IMG/VR virus record: IMGVR_UViG_3300005337_000003
Location: 32,001-96,000 of that record
Source: a virus
Length of the DNA stretch: 64,000 nt
Direction: 5' to 3' (one strand)
The notes beneath the pieces are model-generated. The model was given only the letters and a program-made list of their open reading frames with translations. It was not told the origin of the DNA and ran no database searches. The translations under genes and the position numbers were made by a program. How positions within the stretch are numbered: position 1 is the first letter of the stretch; every line of letters starts with the position of its first letter. This document shows positions 9,332 through 64,000 of the stretch, one piece after another.

Positions 9332-9398
9332 TTTTGGAATTGTGTGAGTATTTTACAAAACTAATTAAATAGTATTTCAGTACCAATTCCTATACAAC

Positions 9399-9415
9399 TT
9401 TACTTTTTTAGTAAA
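9399..9415. promoter_or_regulatory. 17-bp palindromic operator-like site TTTAC-TTTTTTA-GTAAA, copy 1
   Basis: Exact copies at 27852-27868 (opposite orientation) and 41273-41289; all are intergenic and upstream of minus-strand genes. Confidence 0.7.
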
Positions 9416-9418
9416 GTA

Positions 9419-13614: not shown

Positions 13615-16600
13615 TTATCGGTTAGAATAAAGTGTCTTGTTAACTGCAAAAATCATGACAAAGCGTTTATCTCCACACACTTTACGGCGTAGGAAGACAT
13701 ATCCCAGGTAACCACGAAAAGCTTTTTGCTCTGTCTGATCCTTATTATAATTTATATTAGCATTATTCAGATCCATAATATACCCATTCGGTTCTGTGTT
13801 CCATATAGGCCTGTAGGCTGTAGATACCCTGTTAAGGGTTAAGTCGTAGAACATATTAATCCTGAACTTATTCTCCTTCATCTCATAAAGAACCTTGGTA
13901 TGGTCGGAAGCTACTATCGGATACTGAAGATCGTCCCACGGGGAGTCCGGCGAACTTAAAACCAGTTTTAAAAGTCCTGAACACTGCTCGTTGTTATAAA
14001 CCACTACCTCGTCAAATGTTTCATTTAAAAACATATATCGGTCATAGCAATTATCGGCATATTTATATACCTCCTGGTAGTACTCAAGGCTCTTGGTAAT
14101 ATTAACCACACCTTTATCATCATTCAGATATTCCAGCTCAAATGGATAATCTACACCATAATAATTACAAAATAAATCACACCTATTGTTATGTCGCCAT
14201 ATACCATTACCTTTTATGGTATTAAAGTTTTTAAGCGAAGGCATAACAAGATCCGGATGCCAGTCATTAGCACTTAACCATTTTTTCTCACGTATATCAT
14301 AGCTTATTGTCCACGAAGCTGGTTGGAAGAATTGAGTATCCTCAAGGGTAAAAGTAAATAGCAGCGGGCCTTGCGGTTGGTCATCTCCTGTATCTTCAGC
14401 TGGGTAATAACCAAAAACATTACCGGAAATGTGATTTACGAATTTGAGCTCGACTACGTTTGTAAATTTATAATCTTTTTTGGTAAAATACACAACATGG
14501 TTCTCGCCGTCATATACTGCCTGGTAACCTATGCCTATCACGGGGTTATTCCGGTGTGGAAAATCAGGAAAATCTACCAGTAGATTATAGGGCATATAGA
14601 TGGAAAACCACCACAGTCTTTCAGGCATTATAAGATCTATAAGTCCCCCGGTAATAGTAAATATTCTGAGCTGCTCAGGGCATACCCAATAAATGCCGGA
14701 TGGAGTATTAACGACACTGAGACTCTCCTGAGTAGCTCCCACCTGATAGGATCGATCAGCGTTACTTAGAGACTGGGCCTCTCGACTTAAGAAAGATCCG
14801 CTGCCAATAGTAATAGAAGTGACTGACAACTCTAACTGTTCATTACCCTGGATCATTACCGGGTTATCCGATTTAAATATAACAATGGCACCAGTCGCCC
14901 CTATGGATTTAATAGTAGAAATATTAGATTTAAATTCCCGGTAATCATTGGCCTTAAATATCGTCCAGGCATTTACAACTGATCCATTCTGCTGAGGCAG
15001 TGAGTAAATTACCCTCCTTGGGTGGTAGACATAACAATTCTCAGCGACTATAGGATCATAATAAACAGGCTGACCATAAGACCATGAAACCATATTGACA
15101 AACGACCTGGAAGCACTTAAAGAATAGTCATACTTATAAAAATTATCCGACTTGATCACATCTGGATCAGCCTTAAACATAGCCACTGTATTAGTGTAGG
15201 TCTCCGAATCATAATGTCTTTTCTGTACAGGTTCATCCCAATCTCTATAACCCAGGTTAATCTCAGACTCAACGTAAAAATCACGCACACTGGAAACAAA
15301 CAAATAAAAATAAGCATTCTTCACAATGAAATAAGATTGGGTCTTAGTAGCATCGTTTATGAAAGTGTCGGAAGTGGATGGTTTACGATCCAGGGCCCTA
15401 AAGCCTGTGGGGAGCCAGGGTGAGGCGCTATAGTTATTCAGTTGCGTGTTGCCTGCTTTGCCTCCACCAGTGGTTAATCCTACGATTGAGCCGCCCAGGT
15501 TGTTAGCAATACCCTTAGTCATATCCGATACATCGAATTTTTTAGTATTAGCCCAGTATGAAGGATATTGTAACATACGAGCTTTGAGATAGTCAAACTC
15601 AAATCCGTCAAATTGCTTATACAGCCAGTCATAGAAAAAATACATAGTGTTCTTTTCCGTATACCTGGTTATATATACATCCCCACAAAAGATTACAGGA
15701 GAGGTGAAAGCATCGTTTACGCTAGATATTTCTATGTAGTTTACACAGCCTGTGGGAACCTTCTTAGTGCTGCCGGGTTGTCCATATTGGTTTCGCAGCC
15801 TCTCCTTAAGGGAAGCATACAGGGAGCTGGCAGTAGTGACTACATTATATGTAGTAGGGGAGTAATGGATATCTGAAGCCCCTGAAAACCCAGCCTGAAC
15901 AGTTCCTACAGTCTGCTTTGTATTATCTATGGCCAACGCACTCAGATCGGTAGGTATTGCCATGTCCACAGTCGTCTGAACTGCTACTGTTGAACTGCGA
16001 TAAAAATTGTTTATCCTTTTATTGCCATCAAATTCCTGAAAGGTGGGGCCTAGGTAAACACTACGGTTAATTCGATACCTGAGTGGGTAGGCATTAAAAT
16101 ACTTGTTGTAAAAACAATGCGATATCTGCTGCAGGGCATATTGTTGATATTGCGACATGTGTAATATCGCATCCATCACATTATCTATGCCTTCGCCCCA
16201 GAATTGTACAAACATGGATAAGCCTCCCATGGCGGCGCCCCGCAAGAAACCGCCGATAGATTTGCCTAATCCTCCAACAAGCTGGCTGACTTTTCCCCCG
16301 CCTCCGAATATTCCGTCCAGTACATTGCCCGATGAAATATTGGCTCGTTCCTGTTGCTCTATGGGAGTAACTGTCATATCCCTGGCCTCCACAATGTCAC
16401 CGCTATCTGCCTCCACATTCTCTATAGAGTCGTGGTCGTCTATTTTGCTGGAAAGAGCTCCAAGTATACCTGAAATGCCAATAGCTGTAGCTCCAGCAAC
16501 CGTCAACGCACTAGAGCCCGGTATGATGCTATTAGCTACTGAACTGGATCTGGAGCCTACCAGTTTTGAAACCCCTATGCCTATGCCCACAATAGTGGCT

Positions 16601-30579: not shown

Positions 30580-32202
30580 TCAGAGTGAATTACCTGTGAC
30601 AGGATTACGCATAACCACCTTGAGTAATTTTGTAGCGTCGCGAACCCACAACATTGGGTACATCTGCTCCATAAAGCATGTCCAGCCGTTGGTACGGTCG
30701 CCCTGGAACCCGGAACGTTTACCGGTATAATCCATGCTGCCGTTCTTATACCACCACCTGAAGCCTGGATCCCACTTGAATTTCTTCAGGCGGATATTCT
30801 CCTTAGAGGTATCGATATCCTGGATGATGTAGCTGTATGAACTCAACGGATAACCATCCACGATCGGGTTCTCAATGGTGTTCATTTCCACCGGATCGAA
30901 TGCGGGGTTAATACGGAACCGTAGCACAGCGTAGTGTGGTATAATGATCTCCCGGAAGTAGTAACCAAAGCCCAGGTCCATGCCGGTACCTGACACAGTG
31001 TTAGTGCCGGACTTGTCAGCGTTGACGATCCAGCCCAGACCAGCCAATTCTTTAGAGATCAGGCTGTTCACCTGTTGTGAACCTGCAACACCTGTCCATA
31101 CCTCCAGGATCCTGGTAGGCATAGCGGGCTGTGTTGCTTCCTTGTTGGTGAAATATTTGTAGATCGCGGTGCGCAGCAGATCCAGGCTAAAATAACCACG
31201 GTTATAGATAAACTTGTAAGAGCTATCCAGCTGCTTCCACATACCTGTAGCCATGCGGGCATCGTCAGGGCCACTGCCTCTTACGGTACCGCCCTTACCC
31301 CATATACAATAGTTCTCAATGTCGAGAGCGATCTTGTTCATGTGAGCTGCCTCCATCTTGGTGAGAAATGTCATATTCAGAGTGCCATTCTCGCGGGCTT
31401 TCTTTACATAATCAGCACCCATGATAGTGGCCATGTCCTCAATACTTTTCACTGAAGGATCCACATTCTCCATATCGTTATGGCGCCAGATCTGTGTAAT
31501 ATTGATGCGGCCATCGCTGGTGATGCCATTGCGGGCAATCAAATCAGCCCGTGAACTTACACTGAACTCCACGTTAGCTGTTGCGGTAGGCAGTAAGTTG
31601 AAGAACTCGCGATATCCTGCCTGGATGGTAAGCTTTGAGAAATTCTGCTCGTATTCACCCTTGGCTGAACCGACACGGAAGTACTTGGTACCACCTGCCA
31701 GGTAGCGGTTGTCCAGGTATTGAACATCGTCGTTGTTGACCAACTGCACCCAATAAATGGCATTGTCGCCATTATTGATGATGTCGCGATCCGGCAGAAT
31801 ATAGAGCTCAAGGCCGGAATACTTGTCGTACGTAATGATATCGGTCTTGCCAAACTCAAGACGTGACAATTTGATCTGGAAGGGTTGACCATCAATGCCC
31901 TTAGTGGTGTTTGACGGATCAATGTCCTCCACAATAAATGGAAGATCGTACTGGGCTGGGATTTGCCAGGTGAATCTGCCGTCCAGGTTTTCTACATAAT
32001 CTGCATCGGTCATGTTGGCGCTGGCCATGGAGTACAGAGGGATATTTGCCTTCTGTTTCATCGCCCAGAGCTCTATCATGCCTATGTTGTCTGGCTGCTG
32101 GTCACCCAGCATGTGCCGGATGTGGTAAGAATCAATGTCGGACGTGGCCTTTACGCTTACGTCGCGCATGAATATGCCATTATTTAAAACGGGTGTGCTC
32201 AT
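30580..32202 (-). CDS. Major capsid protein, 540 aa
   Basis: Position terminase-portal-scaffold-MCP; crAss-like MCP motifs (LEIYILP-like segment, LKVVMRNPVTG end); strong leader and terminator. Confidence 0.85.
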   Translation of the reverse strand: MSTPVLNNGIFMRDVSVKATSDIDSYHIRHMLGDQQPDNIGMIELWAMKQKANIPLYSMASANMTDADYVENLDGRFTWQIPAQYDLPFIVEDIDPSNTTKGIDGQPFQIKLSRLEFGKTDIITYDKYSGLELYILPDRDIINNGDNAIYWVQLVNNDDVQYLDNRYLAGGTKYFRVGSAKGEYEQNFSKLTIQAGYREFFNLLPTATANVEFSVSSRADLIARNGITSDGRINITQIWRHNDMENVDPSVKSIEDMATIMGADYVKKARENGTLNMTFLTKMEAAHMNKIALDIENYCIWGKGGTVRGSGPDDARMATGMWKQLDSSYKFIYNRGYFSLDLLRTAIYKYFTNKEATQPAMPTRILEVWTGVAGSQQVNSLISKELAGLGWIVNADKSGTNTVSGTGMDLGFGYYFREIIIPHYAVLRFRINPAFDPVEMNTIENPIVDGYPLSSYSYIIQDIDTSKENIRLKKFKWDPGFRWWYKNGSMDYTGKRSGFQGDRTNGWTCFMEQMYPMLWVRDATKLLKVVMRNPVTGNSL

Positions 32203-53417: not shown

Positions 53418-53614
53418 TCTTCTATTTGATTTATTTTCATTTCTAATTTTAAAAGCTTAAGCATCCTGGCAACCTCATGTATATAGAATTTGCCGCTTTC
53501 TAATTTCCGGTAATACGTTACCTGGTGGAAGCCTGCATATCTGGATATTCGCGGAATAGACACATTAAGTTCTTTACGCCTTGACTCTATTGTTTTTAAT
53601 ATGTCCGTGTCCAT
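53408..53614 (-). CDS. XRE-family HTH protein, 68 aa
   Basis: IESRRKELNVSIPRISRYAG...YYRKLESG. Confidence 0.7.
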   Translation of the reverse strand: MDTDILKTIESRRKELNVSIPRISRYAGFHQVTYYRKLESGKFYIHEVARMLKLLKLEMKINQIEECE

Positions 53615-54136: not shown

Positions 54137-54619
54137 TTAGGGCTTAAGTATCAATTCGTAAAAGTCTTCATCGAATATATTCCTCTTGATATTCGGGTAT
54201 TTTTCTCCAACGTATTTGAGAATTAATTCCATACATTTAAATGTATTCCTTGCGTTGGTCTTGAACCCGTCAGTAATTTTGACATGAAATGTGCTTTCAA
54301 ACTCATTACATATTTCCACTTTTCCGTAAGCAGATAGCAAGTGTTTTAGTGTAGATATATTTATATCAGCTTTTTCCATATTTGACTTGTCTTCACATTG
54401 GTTCTTGTAAAACTGTTCCTCCTTGTCCCCAGTTACTTCCCCATAGAGTCTTATCCTCCAGTAAGCGATAAGCCTAATAACCTCTTTGTGTTCTTCTACA
54501 TAAACAACCTCGCACCCACACTGCATTTCCCCTTCAATTAAATAAAGGATAGCTAGTAAGCACTCAATATGCGCGAGTACTTTTGTGTTGGTGTATTTGC
54601 TTTCGGGCGTTGAACTCAT
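54137..54619 (-). CDS. Hypothetical protein, 160 aa
   Basis: Clean ORF with A-rich leader. Confidence 0.6.
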   Translation of the reverse strand: MSSTPESKYTNTKVLAHIECLLAILYLIEGEMQCGCEVVYVEEHKEVIRLIAYWRIRLYGEVTGDKEEQFYKNQCEDKSNMEKADINISTLKHLLSAYGKVEICNEFESTFHVKITDGFKTNARNTFKCMELILKYVGEKYPNIKRNIFDEDFYELILKP

Positions 54620-54628
54620 TTTTTCTTT

Positions 54629-54958
54629 TCAAGATTTTACTAACGCGTATTCCATGGCCTCATTAAAAGAACAGCCACCATTGTAATATGTAAGCACGTA
54701 ATCAATTGAGCCATCATCTTGTCTAAAAGCCTGGAAAACATCTCCGCCTTCGCCATACCGCTTATTTTCCGTTCGGTATAATACATCATTGTAAAGAATG
54801 TATTCCCGGTAGCCATCCTGTAACAGGCATTCCAGGAAATTGTTGTTGTATTCGTTCTTTACACCTTTGAGTATCCTCTTGGCATAGTCCTCATTTGTTT
54901 CACCTTCAAGAAGCTGAACTGGAATTAATTTCCCAATATTGGTTTCTGTTTCTGACAT
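54629..54958 (-). CDS. Hypothetical protein, 109 aa
   Basis: Clean ORF; YYNGGCSFNEA motif seen in other phage hypotheticals. Confidence 0.65.
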   Translation of the reverse strand: MSETETNIGKLIPVQLLEGETNEDYAKRILKGVKNEYNNNFLECLLQDGYREYILYNDVLYRTENKRYGEGGDVFQAFRQDDGSIDYVLTYYNGGCSFNEAMEYALVKS

Positions 54959-55094
54959 AGTTTTTAAGTTATTGAATAAAAAACACTAGCAGCTTCCCTA
55001 CTTAGATATTTCAGTTCAGAAATTAGCCAAATTCCTGCTGTAAACTCACCTAGGTTATTACAGCTATTTGGTTACCGCCCAGTGTAAAGGTCAA

Positions 55095-55289
55095 GGTCTT
55101 TGGCAGAGTTTGATACCTGCATGACAACCCGATATTTATTTCGCCATAGGCCTCCTCCGAAAAGGTGTGTTCAGGTCGGGAATTTCATAACTAAGCAGTC
55201 ATTCGGTGTTCCATATTAAGGCCACATTACCTAATGCTTAATCAATTATTGTCTTATTAAATTAGCGTCTATTCTTCCGCCACAAAGAC
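55095..55289 (-). ncRNA. tRNA-like RNA with a large insertion (195 nt)
   Basis: Acceptor GUCUUUG/CAAAGAC (7/7), Leu-like D arm UG-GCG-GAAGAAUAGA-CGC, T arm GCAGG-UAUCAAAC-UCUGC; about 140 nt between the D and T arms instead of about 30; no CCA. Confidence 0.6.
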
Positions 55290-55405
55290 ATTTGACCAAT
55301 ATTTCAAAAGAACGTAAGCAGCGGTGACCATTCACCGGGGGCGCCAAACGAGATCGGCTTATCCCCTACGTCCTGTATTCGCCCAGGACTGCTGCCATTT
55401 CAATT

Positions 55406-56209
55406 TTAATTCATCCGCTGATTAACAACAGTCTCGTCGGATGCCTCCGGTCCCCAGGCGGTTTCCACCAGATAATACTTCTCGCCATTATAACACACCG
55501 GATGCAGAACAATAGGATCGTCGTCAATAATCTGGTGGCCTTTCACTGCCTTACGTTCCATATTAAAATACTTAACAGGGGCAACAATTTCTCTGGAGAC
55601 TTTAATTACTTTTTCTACCCAACGCACACCATACCCCCCATGCCCTCGGTATTGTTTTTCGCAGGAGATAAAGTCCTTATATGTAATTAGTTTAGAATCA
55701 ATAATAGTCCTTCCCATACTTGTTTTCATTTCTAATGCATAACATTCATCCTCCGGATTGATCTTAAACGCTTCCATTTCCTTGAGGTTCTTTTCCGGGA
55801 TCTCACCGATAAAATCACTTACCGTTCCCAGTACCAATCCATATTTATCACATATATCCTTAACGGCATCCGCTGTAATAAATTTATATTGCGGATAAGT
55901 TCTGGAAAAGAATTCCAATGCGGTTCTTTGTTTTTCATAGAATGATAACTTTCGGTTCAACTGGAAAGCCCGTGTAACCTCCTTTGAACTTGTAAACCCT
56001 AAGGCTTCTAATCGTTTAGATTTTTCCGTGATTTCGGCGTGGCTACATTTCAAATCTGATATAGTGGATGTAGCGGCCTGGAGGACCAGACTACCTGCGC
56101 TGTTGAATTCACGATGTACCTCCTCCACCAGCTCCTGCTGGCTTTTGCCTTGGGACGCTGAGTACCTCGACTCTGTATCCGCTTTTTTGTTCCAGTTAAA
56201 TAACCTCAT
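55406..56209 (-). CDS. Hypothetical protein, ~267 aa
   Basis: ATG 56209 preferred to TTG 56236; C-terminal DDPIVL...YYLVETAWGPEASD motif. Confidence 0.65.
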   Translation of the reverse strand: MRLFNWNKKADTESRYSASQGKSQQELVEEVHREFNSAGSLVLQAATSTISDLKCSHAEITEKSKRLEALGFTSSKEVTRAFQLNRKLSFYEKQRTALEFFSRTYPQYKFITADAVKDICDKYGLVLGTVSDFIGEIPEKNLKEMEAFKINPEDECYALEMKTSMGRTIIDSKLITYKDFISCEKQYRGHGGYGVRWVEKVIKVSREIVAPVKYFNMERKAVKGHQIIDDDPIVLHPVCYNGEKYYLVETAWGPEASDETVVNQRMN

Positions 56210-56241
56210 GACACAAATATAAGCACAGAATTGCAAATATG

Positions 56242-56277
56242 CAAATTTATTTTGTGGTAATTTTTTTATTATATTTG
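56242..56277. promoter_or_regulatory. Back-to-back Bacteroidota -7 elements
   Basis: TAAATTTG on minus (56249-56242) and TATATTTG on plus (56270-56277). Confidence 0.55.
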
Positions 56278-56300
56278 ATCAAACCAAAACACAAAAATAA

Positions 56301-56456
56301 ATGGCAAAACATCCTGGCTTCAAAGCCGTACAAAACAAGATCGCCAGCAAGGAAGGTATCAGCAAGAAAGCAGCTGGTGCGATCCTGGCAACATCCACCC
56401 GCAAGGCTAGTCCGGCGGCAAAGAAAAAGAATCCTAACCTGAAAAAGGTTAAGTGA
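56301..56456 (+). CDS. Small highly basic protein, 51 aa (not in track)
   Basis: MAKHPGFKAVQNKIASKEGISKKAAGAILATSTRKASPAAKKKNPNLKKVK; own -7 box, A/C-rich leader and terminator. Confidence 0.75.
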   Translation: MAKHPGFKAVQNKIASKEGISKKAAGAILATSTRKASPAAKKKNPNLKKVK

Positions 56457-56474
56457 TCAATCACTAAAAAAAGA

Positions 56475-56499
56475 AAGGCCCAGCGATAAACTGGGCCTT
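56475..56499. terminator. Bidirectional terminator between convergent genes
   Basis: AAGGCCCAG/CTGGGCCTT 9-bp stem. Confidence 0.75.
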
Positions 56500-56520
56500 A
56501 ATTATTTAAGAATACCTATG

Positions 56521-56736
56521 CTACTCTAGGTGGCAATCACTAATGCTGTAGTCTGCATTTCCCGGATCATTCCGGGACTCACACTTGGTCTTCGCATCGG
56601 ACTTGGTGGACTCCGAAATAATGGAGCCTGATGAGTTTGCCCTGCCATAGGTAGTTACGGTACAGCGGCAAGTGTAATCCTTCTTGCAGCCAAATGCGAT
56701 CACTATGAGCGCAAACATTAAAACTGATTTCTTCAT
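56521..56736 (-). CDS. Small lipoprotein, 71 aa
   Basis: MKKSVLMFALIVIAFG|CKKDYTCRC: lipobox plus the KKD/E start typical of Bacteroidota surface lipoproteins; four further Cys. Confidence 0.75.
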   Translation of the reverse strand: MKKSVLMFALIVIAFGCKKDYTCRCTVTTYGRANSSGSIISESTKSDAKTKCESRNDPGNADYSISDCHLE

Positions 56737-56795
56737 GGTTATTGTTTTTTTATAGTTCCATGTTGCAAATATGCAAAAAGAGATCCAGATAAACA

Positions 56796-56876
56796 AATAA
56801 AAAACCCGGCACTGGTTTGTGCCGGGCGCCCGCCTAACAGAAGGAGATGCTGACGGGAGGTTATCTTAACAAGAGA
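56796..56876 (-). ncRNA. Candidate ~80-nt sRNA
   Basis: Promoter TTTG (56913-10), 20-nt spacer, TATATTTG (56889-82); no ATG; hairpin 56829-56857 with loop UCUCCUUC; terminator CCCGGCAC/GUGCCGGG plus U run. Confidence 0.55.
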
Positions 56877-56953
56877 TGCCTCAAATATATAAACAATAAT
56901 CCAGGTATACAAACACCGGCAATTAATTCTCCGAAGTTATGTCGGAAGATGGT

Positions 56954-57190
56954 TTAGTATTTACGCATGGGCGCACTGTCCTCCTGGAGGACCTTGAATA
57001 GCCGGCTCATGATATCGTCCATGTCTGATACTGATGGCATGGGATACCGGGACTGCAGCTTCAGGAGCCTCTCTGGCTCCTCACCTGACAGGTGATTATT
57101 GACTTTGATTGCTATGAAGAACCGGTTCAGCTCGTCCATGAGAGCCTGGTTCTTATAAATCCGTAATTCTTTTCGTGATCTTCTTTCCAT
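56954..57190 (-). CDS. Hypothetical protein, 78 aa
   Basis: Last minus-strand gene before the strand switch. Confidence 0.5.
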   Translation of the reverse strand: MERRSRKELRIYKNQALMDELNRFFIAIKVNNHLSGEEPERLLKLQSRYPMPSVSDMDDIMSRLFKVLQEDSAPMRKY

Positions 57191-57305
57191 ACCTGTTATT
57201 ATGCAAACAGGTTACACTGATCCGGGATAACCTCCAGATGGTTTAAAGGGAGATTTCCTATCCTCAAAAGGGAAGGAGGACTGTAAAATCCCTCCTTTAA
57301 AAACC

Positions 57306-57461
57306 ATGACAAAGTATGTCGTAAAGAACGGACAGTGCTATAAGCTACTGTTCAGGAAAACCGTTCGCCACTACCTGACCAAGAGGTTAATAACCTCAAG
57401 GAAAGGGAAGGTGATGGTCGTACCTGTCCAGGTAGACTGTTCCTTCTGTGGTTGCTGTTAA
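57306..57461 (+). CDS. Small basic protein with Cys-rich tail, 51 aa (not in track)
   Basis: MTKYVVKNGQCYKLLFRKTVRHYLTKRLITSRKGKVMVVPVQVDCSFCGCC; TTAAAAACC leader. Confidence 0.45.
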   Translation: MTKYVVKNGQCYKLLFRKTVRHYLTKRLITSRKGKVMVVPVQVDCSFCGCC

Positions 57462-58347
57462 TAACAGCTTCCATCTGGATTAGGATGAGGTGGAGCTTAC
57501 ACCCCACCTACTTTTCTTTCCGGTGGTCGCGCACGTATATAGTTACCCTCAAGGACGGTCTCATTAGCTGACAAATCTCCAGTTAGCGCTGGGTGTCTGA
57601 GATGTGAGGTAGAAGCTCACAACCGCTCTTCTTGTTAAAGTGATTGTTACCAAGGTGGGGTTTAAGTAGTCATTCCCTTAATGTGTCCACTGAGGTTCAA
57701 TCCGCCCCAATCAGGTCATATGTTAACTGGTCGGGAATTAAAGCCGCACATGGCGGCTTCAAAAATATTGTTCTTTCGTTGCGCTCTGACGGCATCATTA
57801 TAGTCCGGGAGCGGCCGACCAGCGTTAGAACATAAAGGGCTCGTTAGGAAACTCGACCGGTATTTCCAACCGGATGGTGGGAACCTAGCTGGGCTCTTTT
57901 TCATTTACGAATGTACGGACAAATTCTCATCCAACCAAAAATATATGGTGCCGTGGTGTTTAGATGCCGTGTCACGCGCGGTGCCGCTCATGGGTCCCCC
58001 AATCTACCCCGCCACCCAATCTCTCCGCTGGGCCCCACCCGGGGGGGTTCCAATCTCTCAAATTCCATCTATTAGGGCGATTTTCTAAAACCGGATTTTT
58101 TATGACAAAGATCAGCCCACCAGCTCGTCTCCAGGAACAACAACGGCCAACCAGAGCTGACCTGGCGGCTGGCAGACGATGCCAGGCCGTCTCGAATACC
58201 TGGGGAGACAAGGAATGCTAAAACAGCTAAAAGCCACGATAGCACCCCTTAGCCCCCTTATCGCACACCCGGCGCCGCTCAATCTCTCGCATCCATTGTC
58301 TTAGCAATCAATCATATACAATATTTAACTTCTTAAAACCACAACAA

Positions 58348-58614
58348 ATGAATCACTTTAAAAGAGAAACAGTCACCGGTCTTACCGGCTGCCGCATCCG
58401 CCAGCAGTACAAGCTACTCTGGATTAAGATGCTGCATAACAAAAGGCGCACATGTAGCGTCTATCCGCTCACCCGGGATAACAGGGTGCCCGAGGAAATA
58501 CTGGAAGAGAGCCGGTTCGTCCCAGGGTTATTCAAGAACAAGGCAACAAAGGAGAGGTTTAAGCTGGTGCAGGGCAAAGACAAATACACCAACCTGATAC
58601 CATGTACAGCGTGA
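58348..58614 (+). CDS. Hypothetical early protein, 88 aa
   Basis: AAAACCACAACAA leader. Confidence 0.6.
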   Translation: MNHFKRETVTGLTGCRIRQQYKLLWIKMLHNKRRTCSVYPLTRDNRVPEEILEESRFVPGLFKNKATKERFKLVQGKDKYTNLIPCTA

Positions 58615-58815
58615 TCGCCTTCATCCTGGGGCTGGGAAGAGTTATAATAAGGCCGGCGTCGAAAGACCACGGCTTTTATTATAGCCCCTCCCACAGCTCC
58701 CGCATCAAGGCCAAGCGACTGGCATTGCGTTAACCGCGCCCCCTTATCCCTCCCTATTCTGCCTATTCTCTCTCATTCATTATCCTAATCAATTAACAAT
58801 TAAAAACAAAAGAAC

Positions 58816-59160
58816 ATGAGCACATTAAAACTCACATCAGATGGCTCCTACTACAAGCGTAGCTCAGGAGTAGACGGCCTGACCACTGCCAAGCAGGTAT
58901 TCCGTTACAACGTTACCGGGGACGAAAAAGACATCGTTGAATACATTGCCGAGCGCGTGAAGGGCGGCGCCAAGGAAACATCGATAAAGACAGAGACCGG
59001 CGTTAAGTACTATACCGATCGCTTTGTTCCAAACGGCACCAGCCTGGACAAAACCCAGGATGGCCGGTTCTTTCCCAACACTGCCAAATGGGATCAGATC
59101 CTGAGCCTGCAGAAACAGGGCCACTCCTACGAGGCTGCCGTGGCAATGGTGTCGGCATAA
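58816..59160 (+). CDS. Hypothetical early protein, 114 aa
   Basis: Strong A-rich leader; high-expression-like codon usage. Confidence 0.7.
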   Translation: MSTLKLTSDGSYYKRSSGVDGLTTAKQVFRYNVTGDEKDIVEYIAERVKGGAKETSIKTETGVKYYTDRFVPNGTSLDKTQDGRFFPNTAKWDQILSLQKQGHSYEAAVAMVSA

Positions 59161-59184
59161 GAATTGCACTGTATTTAAAAAAGC

Positions 59185-59312
59185 TAGGCCGGGAGACTTG
59201 TGCTCCCGGCATTTCACATCAAAAAAGCTCAGTTGTGTGGAGCAAAGTGGCCTGTCCTTTGTGTGGAGGCTGGCCGGCCCCTGGGAGTTGTGTCCCGGGG
59301 GCTTTTCTATTT
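59185..59312 (+). ncRNA. Candidate sRNA with four UUGUG-loop hairpins, the last being a terminator
   Basis: Loops ACUUGUG (59196-202), AGUUGUGUG (59231-39), UUUGUGU (59258-64), GUUGUG (59287-92); G-U pairs and the U tail favour the plus strand. Confidence 0.65.
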
Positions 59313-59316
59313 CACT

Positions 59317-59374
59317 GGGGAGTAGGGGTCAACCGGATCGTATACCGGGCGCTGTTCGAGTCAGCGACTCTCCA
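59317..59374 (+). ncRNA. Anticodon-less tRNA-like element (58 nt)
   Basis: Acceptor GGGGAGU/ACUCUCC-A, perfect T arm CGCUG-UUCGAGU-CAGCG, and only 26 nt between them (a single arm). Confidence 0.65.
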
Positions 59375-59463
59375 CTAAACGAGGCGACAAGCCCACAACA
59401 TAACCACGGGACGGATCAGCTCCAGATAAGCAGCTGGTGGACACGTCTCCTTAACAATAAAAT

Positions 59464-59550
59464 GGAGAGCTGGATGCATGTTGGGCTGTCCGCATGGTGG
59501 CTTTGGGTTGCCACTCTTTTCTCCGGGTTCGATTCCCGGGCTCTCCACCA
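59464..59550 (+). tRNA. Atypical tRNA (87 nt) with an 8-nt anticodon loop (UUUGGGUU; Pro-like UGG plus one nt) and encoded CCA
   Basis: Acceptor GGAGAGC/GCUCUCC-A-CCA; T arm CCGGG-UUCGAUU-CCCGG; anticodon stem GUGGC/GCCAC; D stem AUGC/GCAU with a 14-nt loop. Isotype uncertain. Confidence 0.7.
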
Positions 59551-59793
59551 GCAACACATTGCGCCTCGACAAGCACCGACGGGTGTTTCGTTGGTCAGAC
59601 GTGGTAGCCTTCAATAAGCTACTGATGTCCGTAAAATGGGAAAAAGCACCACATGGATACAGGGGTCCCAACGATAGAGGATGTAATTTACCAGCACCGA
59701 ACGCTAATACCAAAACGGGCGTCGAGTACTATCGGAAGATAGTCGCTGGCTTATTTTGCCAATAACTTTTATTAATTTTAAAAATTGACAGAC

Positions 59794-60012
59794 ATGGAAC
59801 CCAGAGAAATAACACTTACCGGCACGATCCATATCGCACACTTCAGGTTCTATGATGGCCTGCATTATGTAAAGGACAAGCCTTTGAAACAAACCACCCA
59901 GTGGGAGGAACTGGACGGCGGCACAGGATATATGGTGGCCTGTGGCGATGTGATGGTGCGGGTGCCTGAAGACTATTGCCCGCACATCAAAAGAAGAATA
60001 ATAACCATTTAA
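59794..60012 (+). CDS. Hypothetical early protein, ~72 aa
   Basis: ATG 59794 in frame with the track's TTG start. Confidence 0.55.
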   Translation: MEPREITLTGTIHIAHFRFYDGLHYVKDKPLKQTTQWEELDGGTGYMVACGDVMVRVPEDYCPHIKRRIITI

Positions 60013-60025
60013 AAACCAAAAAAAC

Positions 60026-60448
60026 ATGACAACACACGAGATTATTGATGACACGGTTGCCTTTTACGGCGCCGATCCGGTGGGCCGGAGATCCCTGAAA
60101 CTGACAGAGACAGAAGAGCACGATTTAGTTCAAAATGCTTGTTTATACATAGGACCTGGTGGGAAAAAATGTGCATTCGCAAGGTTTGTAAAGGAAGAAG
60201 ATTTATACGAATTACGACAACGAGAGGGAACGTGTGCAGGATTTGTACTAGAATCAGTTACGCTGGAAGACAAGGTATCAAAAATCAAAAACAAAATGTT
60301 CTGGAATAGTGTACAGGCCATTCACGACCAGAGTTCTCATTGGGATGAAAATGGCATAACAGACCAGGGCATCGAGTTTGTCCAAGAGCTAAAGGATAAA
60401 TATCCCAACGTGGAAGAACTTGCTGATAGGCGAGAAGAAGCCGGCTAA
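60026..60448 (+). CDS. Hypothetical early protein, 140 aa
   Basis: CLY...KKCAF...Q.IHD...W pattern; followed by a terminator. Confidence 0.7.
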   Translation: MTTHEIIDDTVAFYGADPVGRRSLKLTETEEHDLVQNACLYIGPGGKKCAFARFVKEEDLYELRQREGTCAGFVLESVTLEDKVSKIKNKMFWNSVQAIHDQSSHWDENGITDQGIEFVQELKDKYPNVEELADRREEAG

Positions 60449-60462
60449 AAACCGGCTTTTTT
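60438..60462 (+). terminator. Intrinsic terminator
   Basis: AAGCCGG/CCGGCUU stem plus U run. Confidence 0.75.
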
Positions 60463-61161
60463 TAACAAATAGGACGAAACACCGTATCCATTGAGTGAAG
60501 CTATAAGATTACCCGCATTTTACCATACTTTTTAGGCGTTTGGCTGAGTAAAGCGTCGTATGAATTGCCACAATTCAGATCTTTTCCGCCTTTATACCTG
60601 GTACCAGGCAACCTTTTAGCCTCCAGATCGGCACGTTTTCCGCCTTAAAGCCTGTCTGTTCAGGCATCAAGCCTCCAGATAAAACTTTTTTCGGCTCTGT
60701 TCCGCGTCCCTCTAAGGCTACAGGCTCATTTTTGGCCTTTTTTAGGGGCAAATAGAGCGCATATTTGGCTTCCAGCTGTGCTGTGGGCCGGTTTATTTAA
60801 TTCTGGCGCCATTAGCTGGCTTTTCGGTGTAAGTTATTGAGAATTAAGGAGATGAGTTGGGGTTTGGTCTTGAATTTTGCGGCCCGCCCCCACTTCATTT
60901 CAACTGCGGCCTACCGGGCGGCTCTTATAGCGGCCCATCCGTAAATACTTTCTACTGTTCTTGGAGGTGGGATCAGGTATAATATCAAATAATAGTATTC
61001 TTCCATAGTTGAGAGTGTAACCTGACAATATCAATATACGTATAAGCAGCATTAGGAAGATGATCCTGGGGCTTTGTGGGATGCTATGGCCTGTAAACCG
61101 GCCAATTCCCGCTGTTTCACCAGCATTCGCCATACCTAACCACCAGCCACCTGTTAAATTT

Positions 61162-61192
61162 TTTGCGAGTATATCAAGCCGTACTATATTTG
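61162..61192 (+). promoter_or_regulatory. Bacteroidota housekeeping-sigma promoter
   Basis: TTTG (61162-65), 19-nt spacer, TATATTTG (61185-92). Confidence 0.75.
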
Positions 61193-61499
61193 CACGGGGA
61201 TTGCCTTTATCTTAAAAGACTAAATATGAAAAAAATATCCACACTTACCGCCATAGCGGCCATGATGGAGGCTGCTGTCTTTTAACAAAGGAAGATAATG
61301 AAGACATTAGCTTTATCAAAAATGCCAAGCTGCTAGCAGAAGGCTGAGTAGATCTAAGGGCGCGGCCTTTTTGCGAATCCAGCGGCATAACCTCCAATCT
61401 GCAGCTCATAACTCATGAAGTAAAAGATTGCACTAAATTTCAACCTAAAGAATAAAAAGCATATTCAGATTTTACTACCCTCCAATAAAAAAATTAAAT

Positions 61500-61985
61500 A
61501 TGACACCAAGAATCCAAAAAGCAATTGACATTTTCCTCGACGCTATAAATGAGAGAACATTAACCAAAGGCAACTGCGCAGCATGTGCAGTTGGTAATTT
61601 AGTGGCGACTGGAATGAACATAAAATTAAGACCCTATACGCTCTGCGAAAATTCAAACAGCGATTGGGGCAATCTATTTTATACTGACGAGACAGGCTGC
61701 CAGGTATACCGCAAAGATCTATTAAGCCCCACAGCATTAAAAAAGGCCATGGATAATATAGAGGCAACCGATTTCACAGAAACAGAGTTAATGCGCATTG
61801 AACATGCATTTGAGACCAATACCAAAATTAGACATGAAAGCTACTATCGTTATCAAAAAGAACAAATACGCCAAGATCAAATAAAGGGCCTTGCAGCGGT
61901 AGTAGAAGTAATGCTCGAAATGGACAATTGCACAGAAAACACAAAAGAAGTATTTACCAAAAAAGCAGAGCTTATACCTATTTAA
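61500..61985 (+). CDS. Hypothetical early protein, 161 aa
   Basis: GNCAACAVGNL...W...F...IEHAFE...GLAAVVEVM; related in pattern to 63021..63449. Confidence 0.7.
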   Translation: MTPRIQKAIDIFLDAINERTLTKGNCAACAVGNLVATGMNIKLRPYTLCENSNSDWGNLFYTDETGCQVYRKDLLSPTALKKAMDNIEATDFTETELMRIEHAFETNTKIRHESYYRYQKEQIRQDQIKGLAAVVEVMLEMDNCTENTKEVFTKKAELIPI

Positions 61986-61987
61986 TC

Positions 61988-62398
61988 ATGGAAAATAACT
62001 TAAAAAAACTAATCGAGACCTATCAATGCCCTGGATGCATGATGGGAAATAGGATAGAATGCTTTAAGCCTGCGGAATATGGAAAGCAATGCGCTGCACA
62101 TCGTCCGGGCACATTTATATCTTCGATAGGTAAAATACTTCTTGGAATGCCAAAAGGCTTTGACCGGACAAATGATAGCCTGGGCGAATCCAAATACGAT
62201 CTGAAGATCCTGGAAGCGCCAGAGTACGATAAGTTCAATGTTGCTGTTTGGAAGCATCTCGACGGGCATGGCAATACACTAGTAAGGGGCCTAATGCCTC
62301 GGCTAAATCAACCTTTTGTACATATCTACGAAGGAGACCAACGGGATAAAATAAGCTGCCTGGAGATCACACAGGAAGACATTAACGAGATGGACTAA
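61988..62398 (+). CDS. Hypothetical early protein, ~136 aa
   Basis: ATG 61988 directly after the upstream stop; CPGC...C...C..H motif. Confidence 0.65.
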   Translation: MENNLKKLIETYQCPGCMMGNRIECFKPAEYGKQCAAHRPGTFISSIGKILLGMPKGFDRTNDSLGESKYDLKILEAPEYDKFNVAVWKHLDGHGNTLVRGLMPRLNQPFVHIYEGDQRDKISCLEITQEDINEMD

Positions 62399-62408
62399 AG
62401 ATACCGCA

Positions 62409-62536
62409 TGGCCCCTATAAGCCGCGCGATTAAATGGACTGGTGGCGTTTTGATCTGTCTGCCGCCAGTAGCTTGCAGGACAGATTCGGACGGGGCCAAT
62501 AGGTGAGAGAAGGGGAAGGTTAATAGCCTTCCCTTT
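62409..62536 (+). ncRNA. Candidate pseudoknotted RNA plus terminator
   Basis: P1 UGGCCCC/GGGGCCA; hairpin ACUGGUGGC/GCCGCCAGU whose loop AUCUGUC pairs with GACAGAU (62479-85); terminator GGGAAGG/CCUUCCC-UUU. Confidence 0.45.
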
Positions 62537-63020
62537 ATAAAGTTCTTTGAAGATAAACGGCTAAACATTGATCCATTGTAAATCGCTGCAAATAGGCGTT
62601 TAGATTGTACTTATTGGAGGTAAACCAATTAAAAATACCCCATATAGGACAGTAGTTTACATAAAGATACTAATCCTGAATTGACAGGATGATGAACCGG
62701 AGGATTTACCATACACTATATATCTTAACAGACTAGAGTGTTCTTAAGTGGAGTAGATCGCCGTAGTAGTTGCTGTAAAGCTAGATGTGTTGTTCCCTTG
62801 AGAAAGGAATCGATGACCAAAGCTATTAGAGCAGTGAATAAGAGAGTAAGGGACAAAGGTAGCTCTACAACACAAATGAGACTCAGCAAGTAGTTAGTTA
62901 CATTCCTAGTCTTAATTGATAGAGTGTGTAATACGATGGCTTAACATTAGCTTCTAACTATGTGACCCTACTCTTTCAGCAGACAAGAGGGTGCTAAACA
63001 AACTAATAACAAAACTTAAC

Positions 63021-63449
63021 ATGAGAATGAGAAAAGAAAAAATCCTTGAAGACCTTGCTATCGAAGAGGCAAAGAACTTAAAAAACCTTGCAAAACCTGA
63101 AGAGATTAACAATTTAAATCCAGCATCATTTGATCCTACTGACCCTGCGAGGTGCATATACGGACAGATGACCGGGAGTTGTTGGTCGGATCGTGCAAAT
63201 GAACTGATCATCAAATGCTGCACCAAAGTAACACATTGGATAGATGTAGATGTTTTTAGCTATGAAATAAACGGCAAAGCGACAAACAAAAGGCACGGCC
63301 CCAAAGAAGCAGATGAAACTTCCGAGTATTATTCTCCCATCGAAACTTTGATATTCGAGGAAGACGTATATGATTTCGAGGATACATTCTACTCCAAGCG
63401 GATCATGGCTTTTCTAAAAGACGAAACAAAGGAATTATCATTCGACTGA
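63021..63449 (+). CDS. Hypothetical early protein, ~142 aa
   Basis: CIYGQMTGSC...YYSPIE motif; ATG 63021 preferred. Confidence 0.7.
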   Translation: MRMRKEKILEDLAIEEAKNLKNLAKPEEINNLNPASFDPTDPARCIYGQMTGSCWSDRANELIIKCCTKVTHWIDVDVFSYEINGKATNKRHGPKEADETSEYYSPIETLIFEEDVYDFEDTFYSKRIMAFLKDETKELSFD

Positions 63450-63502
63450 TACTGATATAGTATGCCGCTGGCCGGGATGCGCCCGGTTAAAAAAAATAAA
63501 AC

Positions 63503-63667
63503 ATGAAAAACATTAAGATCCTGGGATTCTTTTTAATAGGAATAGCACTTAACCTATTAGCTGTATCAATTATATATGTGGACATAATACAACCTATGAT
63601 AGCCGGTTTCTGTATTTTTGAAGCTTATATCTGTATTATTCATCCAGAAAAAATAACCAAAGAATGA
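63503..63667 (+). CDS. Small membrane protein, 54 aa (not in track)
   Basis: MKNIKILGFFLIGIALNLLAVSIIYVDIIQPMIAGFCIFEAYICIIHPEKITKE; A-rich leader. Confidence 0.5.
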   Translation: MKNIKILGFFLIGIALNLLAVSIIYVDIIQPMIAGFCIFEAYICIIHPEKITKE

Positions 63668-63762
63668 ACACTTTATCTTTTAGCATAAATCTAATAACAG
63701 TATGCATGTATACAACATCGCTTGTATTGTGCATTTTTACATTAATTAAAAACTGGAAATAA

Positions 63763-64000
63763 ATGGGAGCAAGAGCACAAGTACACATGGAAGAAAGTGG
63801 TGTATATCTTTATACGCATTGGGGATCTGGAACATTGAAAAAGGATGTAGCAAGGGCCTTAAAAAAGAAATGGCGCTGGGACGACGTGGAATACCTCACA
63901 CGAATAATATTCGACGAAATGGTGGGAAAGGAGCAGGGCGAAGAAACTGGCTACGGTATCGGGACAAATGTAGCAGGAGATGCTGAATACATTATACACA
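63763..64000 (+). CDS. Conserved phage hypothetical protein, partial (runs off the right edge)
   Basis: MGARAQV...VYLYTHWG...RWDDVEYLTRIIFDEM...TGYGIG. Confidence 0.7.
   Translation, partial: MGARAQVHMEESGVYLYTHWGSGTLKKDVARALKKKWRWDDVEYLTRIIFDEMVGKEQGEETGYGIGTNVAGDAEYIIH

Follow-up and report, generated by a model that had tools for sequence, protein, structure and literature searches.

In phage T4, a tRNA gene cluster is co-transcribed with small stable RNAs, species 1 and 2, and Kienbeck et al. reportedly described, in 2024, HDV-like 'theta' ribozymes beside phage tRNAs. The crAss-like Cellulophaga phage phi14:2 possesses two long early intergenic regions that are transcribed rightward, and the resulting RNAs are early, persistent, and more abundant than most mRNAs; the published work stops at the transcripts, and assigns them to no family and gives neither structure nor function (Drobysheva et al., bioRxiv 10.1101/2020.03.07.982082).

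The DNA analysed here is a stretch of 64,000 nucleotides (hereafter referred to as the window) from a 129.8-kb record of an uncultured phage. This record possesses terminal repeats, and as its capsid protein matches Pfam Crass_capsid, the phage is taken as crAss-like. Positions 54960-63020 of the window are the emptiest 8 kb of the genome (the lowest-density 8-kb interval begins at 53501): credible coding sequences cover 3720 of the 8061 bases (46%), whereas the figure elsewhere is about 93%; if every ATG ORF of at least 50 amino acids is included, the region rises to 63%, with 93% for the remaining genome. The initial annotation had listed seven gaps without a credible ORF, and this gene poverty is real; it is not made up for by recoding, small ORFs or pseudogenes. 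The region also includes a divergent strand switch and the minimum of the cumulative GC skew, at 59130; GC skew also tracks gene orientation. My preferred reading, held with some reserve, is that this stretch is the early or control zone of a divergent crAss-like phage, a mosaic of RNA genes and regulatory DNA rather than one RNA module.

Eleven small genes were identified between 55406 and 62398, one of them doubtful. Those at 55406-56209, 56521-56736 and 56954-57190 (minus strand) and at 56301-56456, 58348-58614, 58816-59160, 59794-60012, 60026-60448, 61500-61985 and 61988-62398 (plus strand) are credible by codon score, while the plus-strand ORF 57306-57461, of 51 codons, scores 0.02 per codon, a value intermediate between the distributions for decoys and for true genes. 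Apart from phrog_31716, which has no assigned function, the eleven matched no family of PHROG or Pfam. Gene 61500-61985 has 598 representative relatives, 55406-56209 is the sole gene of the region matching the loci of relatives, and genes 60026-60448 and 58816-59160 have no relative in 5.8 billion proteins.

At the right-hand end of the region lies a structured RNA gene of ~440 nt (62557-63000, plus strand), which represents the long form ('type A') of a phage RNA family that has not been catalogued. Homology and covariation establish it as a genuine conserved RNA gene. Rfam contains no match for it, yet the family is widespread in phages: its core 17-mer is present in at least 120 IMG/VR contigs, a lower bound, and a 24-nt exact match is shared with one of the phage loci collected (L044). 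Starting from the 5' end, it comprises a 5' block, AAACAUUG..UGUAAAU; then ACAUAAAGAUAC followed by the hairpin CCUGAAUUGACAGG; the GNRA-capped hairpin Ha; the helix P1, in which UGUGUUG pairs with CAACACA; the invariant hairpin H2 (UUCC-C-UU-GAGA-AA-GGAA, 62793-62809); a variable hairpin, H3, then AAAUGAG.CUCAGC; the variable hairpin GUAGUUAG/CUAACUAU; and a 3' block, GACCCUACUCUU..AAGAGGGUGCUAAA. The gene is colinear with phi14:2 2912-3345, with 60% identity over 395 aligned columns (about 440 nt), and with the family model R1 the two elements reach 70.3 bits (here) and 73.6 bits (phi14:2). Covariation across related phage sequences, proposed as a check by the initial annotation, was observed for this RNA in two helices, Ha and P1. 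In the family alignment, 96.4% of cells are paired and the covariation score is 0.250, whereas shuffles give 87.5% and 0.079 (none of 500 reaches either value) and slid controls 0.03-0.06. In phi14:2, the pairing of H2 is kept through two double changes. A loop-to-downstream pseudoknot is also proposed for this RNA; its loop is invariant in all copies collected, including the search-independent copy of phi14:2.

Members of this family span about 250-450 nt, with a short form of about 110 nt, and many short-form copies start a few bases past the 3' end of a tRNA in phage tRNA arrays. A same-strand tRNA is found within 1 kb of 61 of the 117 family copies, and a tmRNA-like 5' end no more than 200 nt downstream of 4 of the 42 long-form copies; in phi14:2, a tmRNA (4031-4500) lies 686 nt past the family RNA. 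The RNA was not found in four relatives identified by anchor genes (G001, G003, G004 and G006). Based on gene order only, I infer that phi14:2 2912-3345 is the published 'g004-g005 junction' RNA. By homology with phi14:2, the large RNA is most likely made early and would accumulate as a stable RNA; its gene is preceded by a terminator and opens the long rightward gene array. Transcription in the present phage, like every function proposed here for its elements, is inferred.

The segment preceding this gene (62401-62540, plus strand) begins directly past the stop of gene 61988-62398, and folds into a branched structure, after which comes a strong hairpin of terminator type (62510-62534); the segment has a z-score of -4.4, with none of 200 shuffles as stable. 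It is conserved in none of the phage loci compared, and is read as a 3' UTR and putative terminator dividing gene 61988-62398 from the large RNA.

Across the region, GC-corrected 150-nt windows with z < -2 on the plus strand make up 9.5% of the sequence, against 1.5% elsewhere, and several structured patches are stable on that strand only. The initial annotation had described most gaps as structured or containing tRNA mimics, and this holds in part. Five stretches exceed shuffled controls, namely 62401-62540, 57296-57560 (z -3.9), 58625-58700 (z -5.2), 59185-59312 (z -3.5) and the gap 59161-59793 taken whole (z -3.3). In contrast, no excess structure was detected for 57531-58100 (plus strand, z -0.25), 62541-63020 (z +0.36), 60449-61499 (z about -1 in each half) or 58090-58347 (minus strand, z -1.1). 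Gaps other than 62549-63000 match neither the complete relative G001 nor any of 1.8 Mb of phage loci that are related or rich in RNA genes. In total, about 2.5-3 kb of gap sequence, over half, neither folds beyond shuffled controls nor is conserved. As for the tRNA mimics, a custom scan identified only two elements with a T arm and acceptor stem in the whole genome, and both are confined to the gap 59161-59793, so that their proposed role as processing marks could concern one gap at most.

This gap would encode a small cluster of structured RNAs, all on the plus strand. At 59185-59312 is an array of four hairpins, each with UUGUG in its loop, which is stable on the plus strand only (0 of 200 shuffles as stable) and includes three occurrences of TTGTGT[GC][GC]. 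Its last hairpin, with an 11-bp G+C stem and a U tract behind it, was identified as an intrinsic terminator in a terminator scan, at which the mRNA of gene 58816-59160 would end; the array is therefore a candidate 3'-UTR-derived small RNA of that gene. The motif CACACAA, complementary to UUGUG-type loops, is found in 6 of 47 late-gene leaders and in none of the 104 plus-strand leaders (background 0.7%).

Five nucleotides past the terminator U tract starts a minihelix-like RNA of 58 nt (59317-59374), whose minimum free energy structure is the expected fold, with 71% of the ensemble. It possesses a 7-bp acceptor stem (GGGGAGU/ACUCUCC) with G3.U70, a discriminator A (A73) then CUA, and a canonical T arm (CGCUG-UUCGAGU-CAGCG); there is no D stem, and a 4-bp capped helix replaces the anticodon arm or P2. 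At the 3' end (..CUCCACUAAA), it agrees with the tmRNAs of relatives G001 and G006. Neither the Rfam tmRNA nor the tRNA model gives a score, and this is the sole mini element of its type in 2.3 Mb of phage loci, the others being full tRNA-Ala genes. It resembles the tRNA-like domain of a tmRNA, but could equally be a tRNA-Ala minus two arms. Downstream is an 87-nt tRNA-like gene with an encoded CCA (59464-59550), folding as a cloverleaf at minimum free energy. Its acceptor, T and 5-bp anticodon stems are perfect; the D loop measures 14 nt, and the anticodon loop (UUUGGGUU) and the variable region 8 nt each. ARAGORN labels it tRNA-Gln(ttg), with the register forced, and in Rfam any tRNA match falls below the 10.9-bit clan match retained instead. 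It shares 77% identity with the minihelix over the 3' half (repeat D9), and comparison with the tRNAs of 185,579 species genomes showed it to be a copy of none. Taken singly, neither tRNA-like element is more stable than its shuffles (z -1.4 and -1.3). No homologue of these small RNAs was found in related or RNA-rich phage loci or in G001, and the anatomy of all three, directly observed, is supported by their own sequence only. A link to translation is plausible, given that relative G001 carries a tmRNA and two oversized tRNAs in early gaps of 850-900 bp, and that in phi14:2 the family RNA is accompanied by a tmRNA. With the alanine identity set in the minihelix, and with UUGUG loops that match the CA-rich leaders of late structural mRNAs, these RNAs most likely have the host apparatus for translation and ribosome rescue as their target or their source.

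The remaining gaps would consist of regulatory DNA and untranslated regions, with host-type promoters, an operator palindrome and terminators. The structured stretch 57296-57560 (plus strand, 0 of 200 shuffles as stable) overlaps the doubtful ORF 57306-57461. Just past the stop of gene 58348-58614 is a long, near-perfect hairpin with a GAAA loop (58625-58700, annotated on the plus strand), stable on both strands and likely a terminator or processing site. The palindrome TTGCAAATATGCAAA, with half-sites TTGCA/TGCAA, occurs in two exact copies (56231-56245 and 56763-56777), 22-27 nt upstream of the minus-strand starts 56209 and 56736, each overlapping a Bacteroidetes-type promoter, and is a candidate operator. 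TAnnTTTG boxes with an upstream TTTG are at 56221(-), 56270(+), 56889(-) and 61185(+). Between 58000 and 58290 (plus strand), the repeat CAATCT(C/A)(T/C)C is found at 58000, 58017, 58051 and 58280, where the DNA is C-rich and lacks structure as RNA, and all three copies of CAATCTCTC in the 129.8-kb genome are located there. These are candidate iterons, or a repeated promoter element; judged solely from the iteron-like repeats and the GC-skew minimum, a replication origin may be located here. The gap 54959-55405, between two minus-strand genes, has a fold z of -1.9 on the minus strand, with a four-way junction (about 55316-55397) past the stop of gene 55406-56209 and a featureless remainder; windows across 55251-55450 reach z -2.4, on the minus strand only. 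The largest gap (60449-61499, plus strand) includes a ~54-nt unit that recurs loosely two or three times (60575-60740) and ends in CCTCCAGAT (repeat D11), and a Bacteroidetes-type promoter with its -7 box at 61185, as well as the leader of gene 61500; no homologue was found in related or RNA-rich phage loci or in G001. CTCCAGAT has 8 matches in the window, of which 4 are in the region, all on the plus strand.

It is very improbable that the gaps conceal protein genes missed by calling, whether through an alternative code, very small size or frameshifts. Stop-codon recoding is known in crAss-like phages, but reading TAG as Q or TGA as W opens no long frames in the gaps, and the remaining genome reads well in code 11. 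In a log-odds model of codon usage, called genes separate from gap ORFs, which score like out-of-frame decoys, and tblastx against relatives gave no match and revealed no decayed genes in the gaps. A start-context matrix run over the gaps returned a single plausible tiny ORF, of 19 codons (61226-61285), which has a promoter of its own, lies in a good start context and scores positive for codon usage; no other small ORF passes both tests. That the gaps besides the large RNA are mostly non-functional or act at the DNA level (origin, genome ends, promoters, operators, decaying genes), the tRNA-likes being pseudogenes of a lost tmRNA/tRNA cluster, I regard as unlikely. It is consistent with small elements unique to this genome, with the non-canonical loops and missing Rfam tRNA score of the tRNA-like gene, and with a minihelix that looks like a tmRNA or tRNA-Ala with the middle deleted, where related phages retain intact tmRNA and tRNAs; the skew minimum, the iteron-like repeats and the hypervariability of the region, with its two orphan genes and single gene matching relatives, also fit. 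However, all stems of both tRNA-likes are perfect (7, 5, 5 and 4 bp), which is unexpected for drifting pseudogenes, the tRNA-like gene encodes CCA, and the array is significantly stable, strand-specific, and has one motif in all four loops, matching late-gene leaders.

Decidedly unlikely is the opposite extreme, in which nearly every gap is an RNA gene of one host-takeover or translation-control module, with the tRNA-likes marking a long precursor for processing by RNase P/Z. The sixfold excess of low-energy plus-strand windows, the patches structured on that strand only and the minihelix starting 5 nt past the terminator all favour it, as do the transcribed early gaps of phi14:2 and the tmRNA and tRNAs in the equivalent gaps of relatives. 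Nevertheless, 57531-58100, 60449-61499 and 58090-58347 fold like shuffled sequence, no gap outside 62549-63000 matches G001 or the 1.8 Mb of phage loci compared, several gaps contain clear DNA-level signals, and the tRNA-like elements are in one gap only. Of the RNA-based module initially proposed, the conserved large RNA and the putative cluster at 59161-59793 stand, while over half of the gap sequence is without excess structure and without conservation.

A mosaic of RNA genes and regulatory DNA can be set beside the described systems. ROOL (RF03087) and GOLLD (RF01998) are, like the large RNA, large multi-helix phage RNAs beside tRNA genes, but differ in conserved blocks and size, and neither Rfam model matches the window, phi14:2, or 15 loci (~20 copies). 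The short-form copies starting near phage tRNA 3' ends recall theta ribozymes, but by inspection the helix order of the family (P1 5' strand, conserved hairpin, variable hairpin, P1 3' strand) misfits the HDV nested double pseudoknot. As in the T4 cluster, tRNA-type and other small structured RNAs occur together, and host RNase P presumably releases them from shared precursors; the T4 tRNAs are canonical and functional, whereas both tRNA-likes here are non-canonical. The minihelix shares with the tRNA-like domain of tmRNA (RF00023) the GGGG start, G3.U70, A73, the canonical T arm and the lack of a D stem, and ends in ..CUCCACUA as do the tmRNAs of G001 and G006, but at 58 nt, against 350-410 nt, it has no mRNA-like domain, tag frame or pseudoknots. 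In phi14:2 the tmRNA is intact, whereas the present phage has only this 58-nt piece, and the other gaps here are without phi14:2 counterpart; nevertheless, both genomes contain ORF-free stretches among small early genes, on the rightward strand and at the same type of genome position, and phi14:2 2912-3345, with its tmRNA nearby, is a homologue of the large RNA in both sequence and structure.

Few known viruses are as abundant as the crAss-like phages, yet their early regions are largely unreadable. The virus studied here (a record of 129,798 bp with direct terminal repeats) is a divergent member of this group. A 540-amino acid protein encoded at 30580–32202(−) matches the Pfam family Crass_capsid, giant ORFs are found in the left arm (e.g. 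3099 and 2347 amino acids), and the nearest capsid relative among GenBank phages shows just 26% identity. The window up to position 54958 consists of minus-strand genes, and plus-strand genes are tightly packed from 63021 to the genome end and then through the genome start. The gene poverty of the divergent strand switch at 54960–63020 is real. All seven stretches reported to lack a credible ORF in the initial annotation were confirmed, and credible coding sequence accounts for 3720 of the 8061 bases (46%). Counting any ATG-initiated ORF of at least 50 amino acids, coverage is 63% in the region against 93% elsewhere, and the lowest-density 8-kb window genome-wide begins at position 53501.

Small ORFs that would explain these gaps had been named as one possible refutation of the RNA reading, but hidden coding fails to account for the emptiness in codon, start-context, recoding and tblastx analyses. 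Using a codon log-odds model trained on 70 long genes, called genes score 0.08–0.26 per codon (0.02 for the doubtful 57306–57461), and ORFs in the gaps score like out-of-frame decoys, with one exception, a 58-codon TTG-start ORF at 60575–60751(−) which overlaps 54-nt repeats. The start-context matrix leaves a sole plausible tiny ORF, of 19 codons, at 61226–61285(+) behind a promoter; since this candidate alone passes both the codon and start-context tests, hidden small ORFs were rejected. An alternative genetic code was rejected as well, as reading TAG as Q and TGA as W (table 4) opens no long frames, and so were decayed genes, since tblastx detected no counterpart of the gaps in 26 related loci, in the complete genome of the relative G001 or elsewhere in the phage's own genome.

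Most gaps had also been described as full of helices and tRNA mimics, which holds in places only, as judged by shuffle-controlled folding and a T-arm scan. Predicted structure significantly exceeds that of shuffled sequences at 57296–57560 (z −3.9), 58625–58700 (z −5.2), 59185–59312 (z −3.5) and 62401–62540 (z −4.4), and over the entire gap 59161–59793 (z −3.3). Elsewhere no excess over shuffles was found: at 57531–58100 (z −0.25), on the minus strand of 58090–58347 (z −1.1), in either half of 60449–61499 (z about −1 each), and in predicted stability at 62541–63020, the gap holding the large RNA discussed below (z +0.36). For GC-corrected 150-nt windows of the plus strand, z is below −2 in 9.5% of those in the region vs 1.5% elsewhere, a sixfold difference. 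Only two convincing elements emerged from a 130-kb scan for a T arm with a 7-bp acceptor stem, and they share a single gap. Rfam searches of the whole window gave no match at gathering scores, relaxing E to 1 or 10 added only junk, and there are no tandem repeats of note. The proposed ncRNA-dense module stands insofar as RNA genes are present, one of them a solid family member, but it is not uniform; RNA genes, UTR structures and control DNA are mixed in the region as a mosaic, and I infer all of their functions.

Close relatives were found neither by single-protein scans of IMG/VR nor by megablast against GenBank phages, and for two proteins of the region a search of 5.8 billion proteins yielded no relative. 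Synteny, suggested as a check in the initial annotation, was not observed in 26 loci fetched via a neighbouring 70-amino acid gene: this gene alone is common to the window, no DNA is shared with the region, and the strand switch is absent within 10 kb of the gene. The product of 55406–56209(−) is the sole protein of the region with a homologue near this anchor gene in a relative (L002, 7923–8675, 32% identity); it is located there on the opposite side of the anchor, the region being rearranged between relatives. The gaps other than that of the large RNA have no homologue in any locus or genome searched.

The large RNA, at 62557–63000(+), was connected to a family through gene 61500–61985, which has 598 representative relatives and whose alignment was used to fetch loci. 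An exact match of 24 nt and a second block link locus L044 to the gap downstream of this gene. The gene product (161 amino acids, with a conserved CxxC motif) belongs to no Pfam or PHROG family, and 32 of the 598 representative relatives match at E 1e-30 or better; in L046 and L047, the core of the RNA family is found ∼430 nt downstream of the homologue.

The core 17-mer of this family, TTCCCTTGAGAAAGGAA, is present in at least 120 IMG/VR contigs. In the core, a helix labeled P1 (UGUGUUG/CAACACA) encloses an invariant hairpin, H2 (UUCC-C-UU-GAGA-AA-GGAA), and a variable hairpin, H3, followed by AAAUGAGUUCUCAGC, all of which are present here. With R1, a covariance model built for this core, positions 62769–62896 score 70.3 bits (E 4e-12); the score is 73.6 bits at 3114–3214 of the Cellulophaga crAss-like phage phi14:2 (KC821624), which was outside the training set and where the H2 pairing is preserved through two double substitutions. 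From blastn blocks and pairwise alignment, the large RNA is colinear with phi14:2 2912–3345 over ∼440 nt. The order of the flanking modules, established from phi14:2 and an alignment of 33 long-form members (A3), is also kept: a 5′ AAACAUUG block, ACAUAAAGAUAC with the CCUGAAUUGACAGG hairpin, the GNRA hairpin Ha, and 3′ GACCCUACUCUU..AAGAGGGUGCUAA.

Covariation across relatives, also proposed as a check, is found in Ha and P1 of this RNA. RNAalifold predicts Ha, P1 and a 3′ helix from the 33 long-form members. Paired cells amount to 96.4% (87.5% in shuffles), doubly changed cells to 65 (18 in shuffles), and the covariation score is 0.250 (0.079 in shuffles and 0.03–0.06 in slid controls); none of 500 shuffles reaches the observed value for any of the three. 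All six pairs of Ha are changed on both sides, in 3–19 sequences, and two pairs of P1 show double changes, while H2 and the 3′ helix are invariant in the alignment and hence uninformative either way. No Rfam family was matched by the copies tested (the window, phi14:2 and 15 member loci), and a hammerhead or HDV-like topology of the core was rejected on helix order by inspection. On this comparative evidence, 62557–63000 is certainly an RNA gene, and a solid member of a widespread phage RNA family absent from Rfam.

The genome studied possesses one copy, and none was found in the anchor-gene relatives G001, G003, G004 and G006. Among the copies listed, 44 of the 118 unique ones, that of the window included, are of a long form, consisting of Ha, P1 enclosing H2 and the variable hairpin, AAAUGAGUUCUCAGC, a further variable hairpin that some copies lack, and a conserved 3′ block with GGGUGCUAA at its end. 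Another 60 of these 118 listed copies are of a short form, in which the P1-H2-H3 core is followed by a GAGGA..UCCUC hairpin, mostly wedged between tRNAs of phage tRNA arrays. Short forms (∼110 nt) are found in 2–4 copies per contig, interleaved with tRNAs (L192 at 1968, 2232, 2420 and 3646; L104, L130, L138, L140, L174), and often fill the space between two tRNAs, many of them oversized, to within a few bases at either end. This interleaving suggests a role in tRNA-array expression or processing. Among the copies listed, 61 of 117 have a same-strand tRNA within 1 kb, and for 4 of 42 long-form copies a tmRNA-like 5′ end lies no more than 200 nt downstream.

Rightward transcription of two long early intergenic regions of phi14:2 has been reported; it is stronger than that of most genes, is already seen at the earliest time point, and does not fall off later as it does for other early RNAs (Drobysheva et al., bioRxiv 10.1101/2020.03.07.982082). 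In this phage the family RNA is encoded by the plus strand in the interval from gp006 to gp010, for which GenBank lists just three tiny ORFs, all on the minus strand. The next long gap contains a tmRNA at 4031–4500(+), with the tag GSSVQKLAMVA according to ARAGORN and an Rfam score of 46 bits (E 1e-16), one bit below the gathering score. This tmRNA is missing from the 31 annotated features of GenBank bases 1–12000, and overlaps the tiny ORFs gp012–gp014. I infer that the two “lncRNAs”, published without coordinates, are most probably the family RNA and the tmRNA; in the host, Cellulophaga baltica, the former seems to rank with the most abundant early transcripts of phi14:2. With the second lncRNA probably a tmRNA, ribosome rescue, and translation, may be the theme of such regions. 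The complete relative G001 (126 kb; L028) has a tmRNA (59.7 bits, 5950–6338) in a 908-bp early-region gap, and two oversized tRNAs (14029–14123 and 14479–14569) in one of 851 bp; these are 90–95 nt long, with a ∼30-nt insert in the anticodon region.

Several smaller candidates are found in the gap 59161–59793. Downstream of gene 58816–59160, an array of four hairpins (59185–59312, plus strand) carries UUGUG in every loop, and its last hairpin is an intrinsic terminator. Of 47 late genes, 6 (the capsid gene among them) have the loop complement CACACAA in their 35-nt leader, compared with 0 of 104 plus-strand genes (background 0.7%). These late leaders precede the minus-strand genes starting at 32202, 27808, 36323, 38566, 9331 and 23975; CA-repeat leaders, e.g. 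AACACACAACACACACAAC directly before ATG, mark major late structural genes. This distribution fits an antisense timer of late translation, but CA-rich translation enhancers alone would give the same pattern.

Five bases past the U tract of the array terminator begins a 58-nt minihelix (59317–59374), with the acceptor stem GGGGAGU/ACUCUCC, G3.U70, A73 followed by CUA, and a canonical T arm. The D stem is absent, a 4-bp helix with a cap occupies the place at which a tmRNA runs on into P2, and the 3′ end reads like those of the G001 and G006 tmRNAs. No second mini element of this type occurs in 2.3 Mb of phage loci, where all other G3.U70/A73 matches are full tRNA-Ala; the minihelix may thus be a tmRNA that has lost its head or a tRNA-Ala stripped of arms, functional or relic. 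In the genome studied, ARAGORN detects no tmRNA and RF00023 has no match at E up to 10 (59.7 bits in G001, 79.4 bits in G006). A “permuted tmRNA” match of 14.8 bits was rejected, as its acceptor strands are mispaired. By inspection, a tmRNA that is permuted, split in two pieces or extends for 234 nt across both tRNA-like elements of the gap was rejected too: the outer strands could pair, but there is no fitting P2 helix or tag frame. Low-scoring tmRNA matches in G003 and G004, considered as similar mini elements, are ordinary tRNA-Met genes.

The other element, ninety bases beyond the minihelix, is an 87-nt tRNA-like gene (59464–59550), a cloverleaf that ends in CCA and whose D and anticodon loops measure 14 and 8 nt. 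It has neither the 7-nt anticodon loop and standard D arm of RF00005 nor a score at its 29-bit gathering level; any Rfam tRNA score is below the 10.9-bit clan match retained instead, and ARAGORN calls a tRNA in a forced register only. A host-tRNA copy or attachment site was rejected, as a search of 185,579 species genomes matched its 3′ half exactly only once, by chance and at a site with no tRNA.

Regulatory DNA makes up a further part of the mosaic. Bacteroidetes-type promoters (TTTG + TAnnTTTG) precede 56209(−), 56301(+) and 61500(+), an exact 15-nt near-palindrome precedes both minus-strand starts, 56209 and 56736, and terminators follow 56456, 56954 and 62398. The three genome-wide copies of CAATCTCTC are all within 58017–58288, and a repeat cluster unique to this site spans 58000–58290. 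The cumulative GC-skew minimum is at 59130, although skew also tracks gene orientation. A replication origin at the repeat cluster or skew minimum is plausible; no initiator or AT-rich unwinding element was identified among origin components. Positions 56300–60012 form a compositional island (47–53% G+C in both genes and gaps, vs 43% for the genome), which may have arrived in one piece. An inverted repeat of 22 nt (91% complementary) links 55771–55792, within gene 55406–56209, to 57389–57410, within the structured stretch 57296–57560; by my own estimate chance would produce ∼0.004 such pairs per 8 kb. The 8-mer CATTAGCT is found at 57562, 60810, 61305 and 62945 (+), four of its five plus-strand occurrences in the genome being in gaps of the region, at borderline significance.

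Jointly, these elements could constitute an RNA arsenal against host translation, although I regard this combined reading as improbable. The large RNA would be a stable transcript travelling with phage tRNA and tmRNA genes, with an activity of its own. The minihelix would be a “headless tmRNA” reduced to the TLD, an alanine-charged decoy that blocks or hijacks SmpB-dependent ribosome rescue, and the UUGUG loops of the array would act as a four-loop antisense RNA, keeping the CA-rich leaders of major late structural mRNAs silent until late infection. If functional, the minihelix, as a tmRNA decoy, and the hairpin array, as a multi-loop timer of late translation, would represent new mechanisms, and both are candidates from a single genome. 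To judge from this window, part of the dark sequence of crAss-like early regions consists of RNA genes. The ∼440-nt RNA belongs to a family that is spread over well more than 100 phage contigs, accompanies tRNA arrays and tmRNA genes, and lacks a catalogue entry; a cultured representative, phi14:2 on Cellulophaga baltica, makes its function directly testable.

Among known large RNAs, ROOL and GOLLD differ from this family, in that the Rfam covariance models of both fail to match its loci, at E up to 1 in positions 54500–64000 of the window or phi14:2 2800–4700, and at gathering score in 15 member loci. The minihelix differs from a tmRNA (RF00023) in having no mRNA-like domain, tag frame, pseudoknots or match at the Rfam gathering score, but resembles it in its GGGG start, G3.U70, A73, T arm and lack of a D stem.
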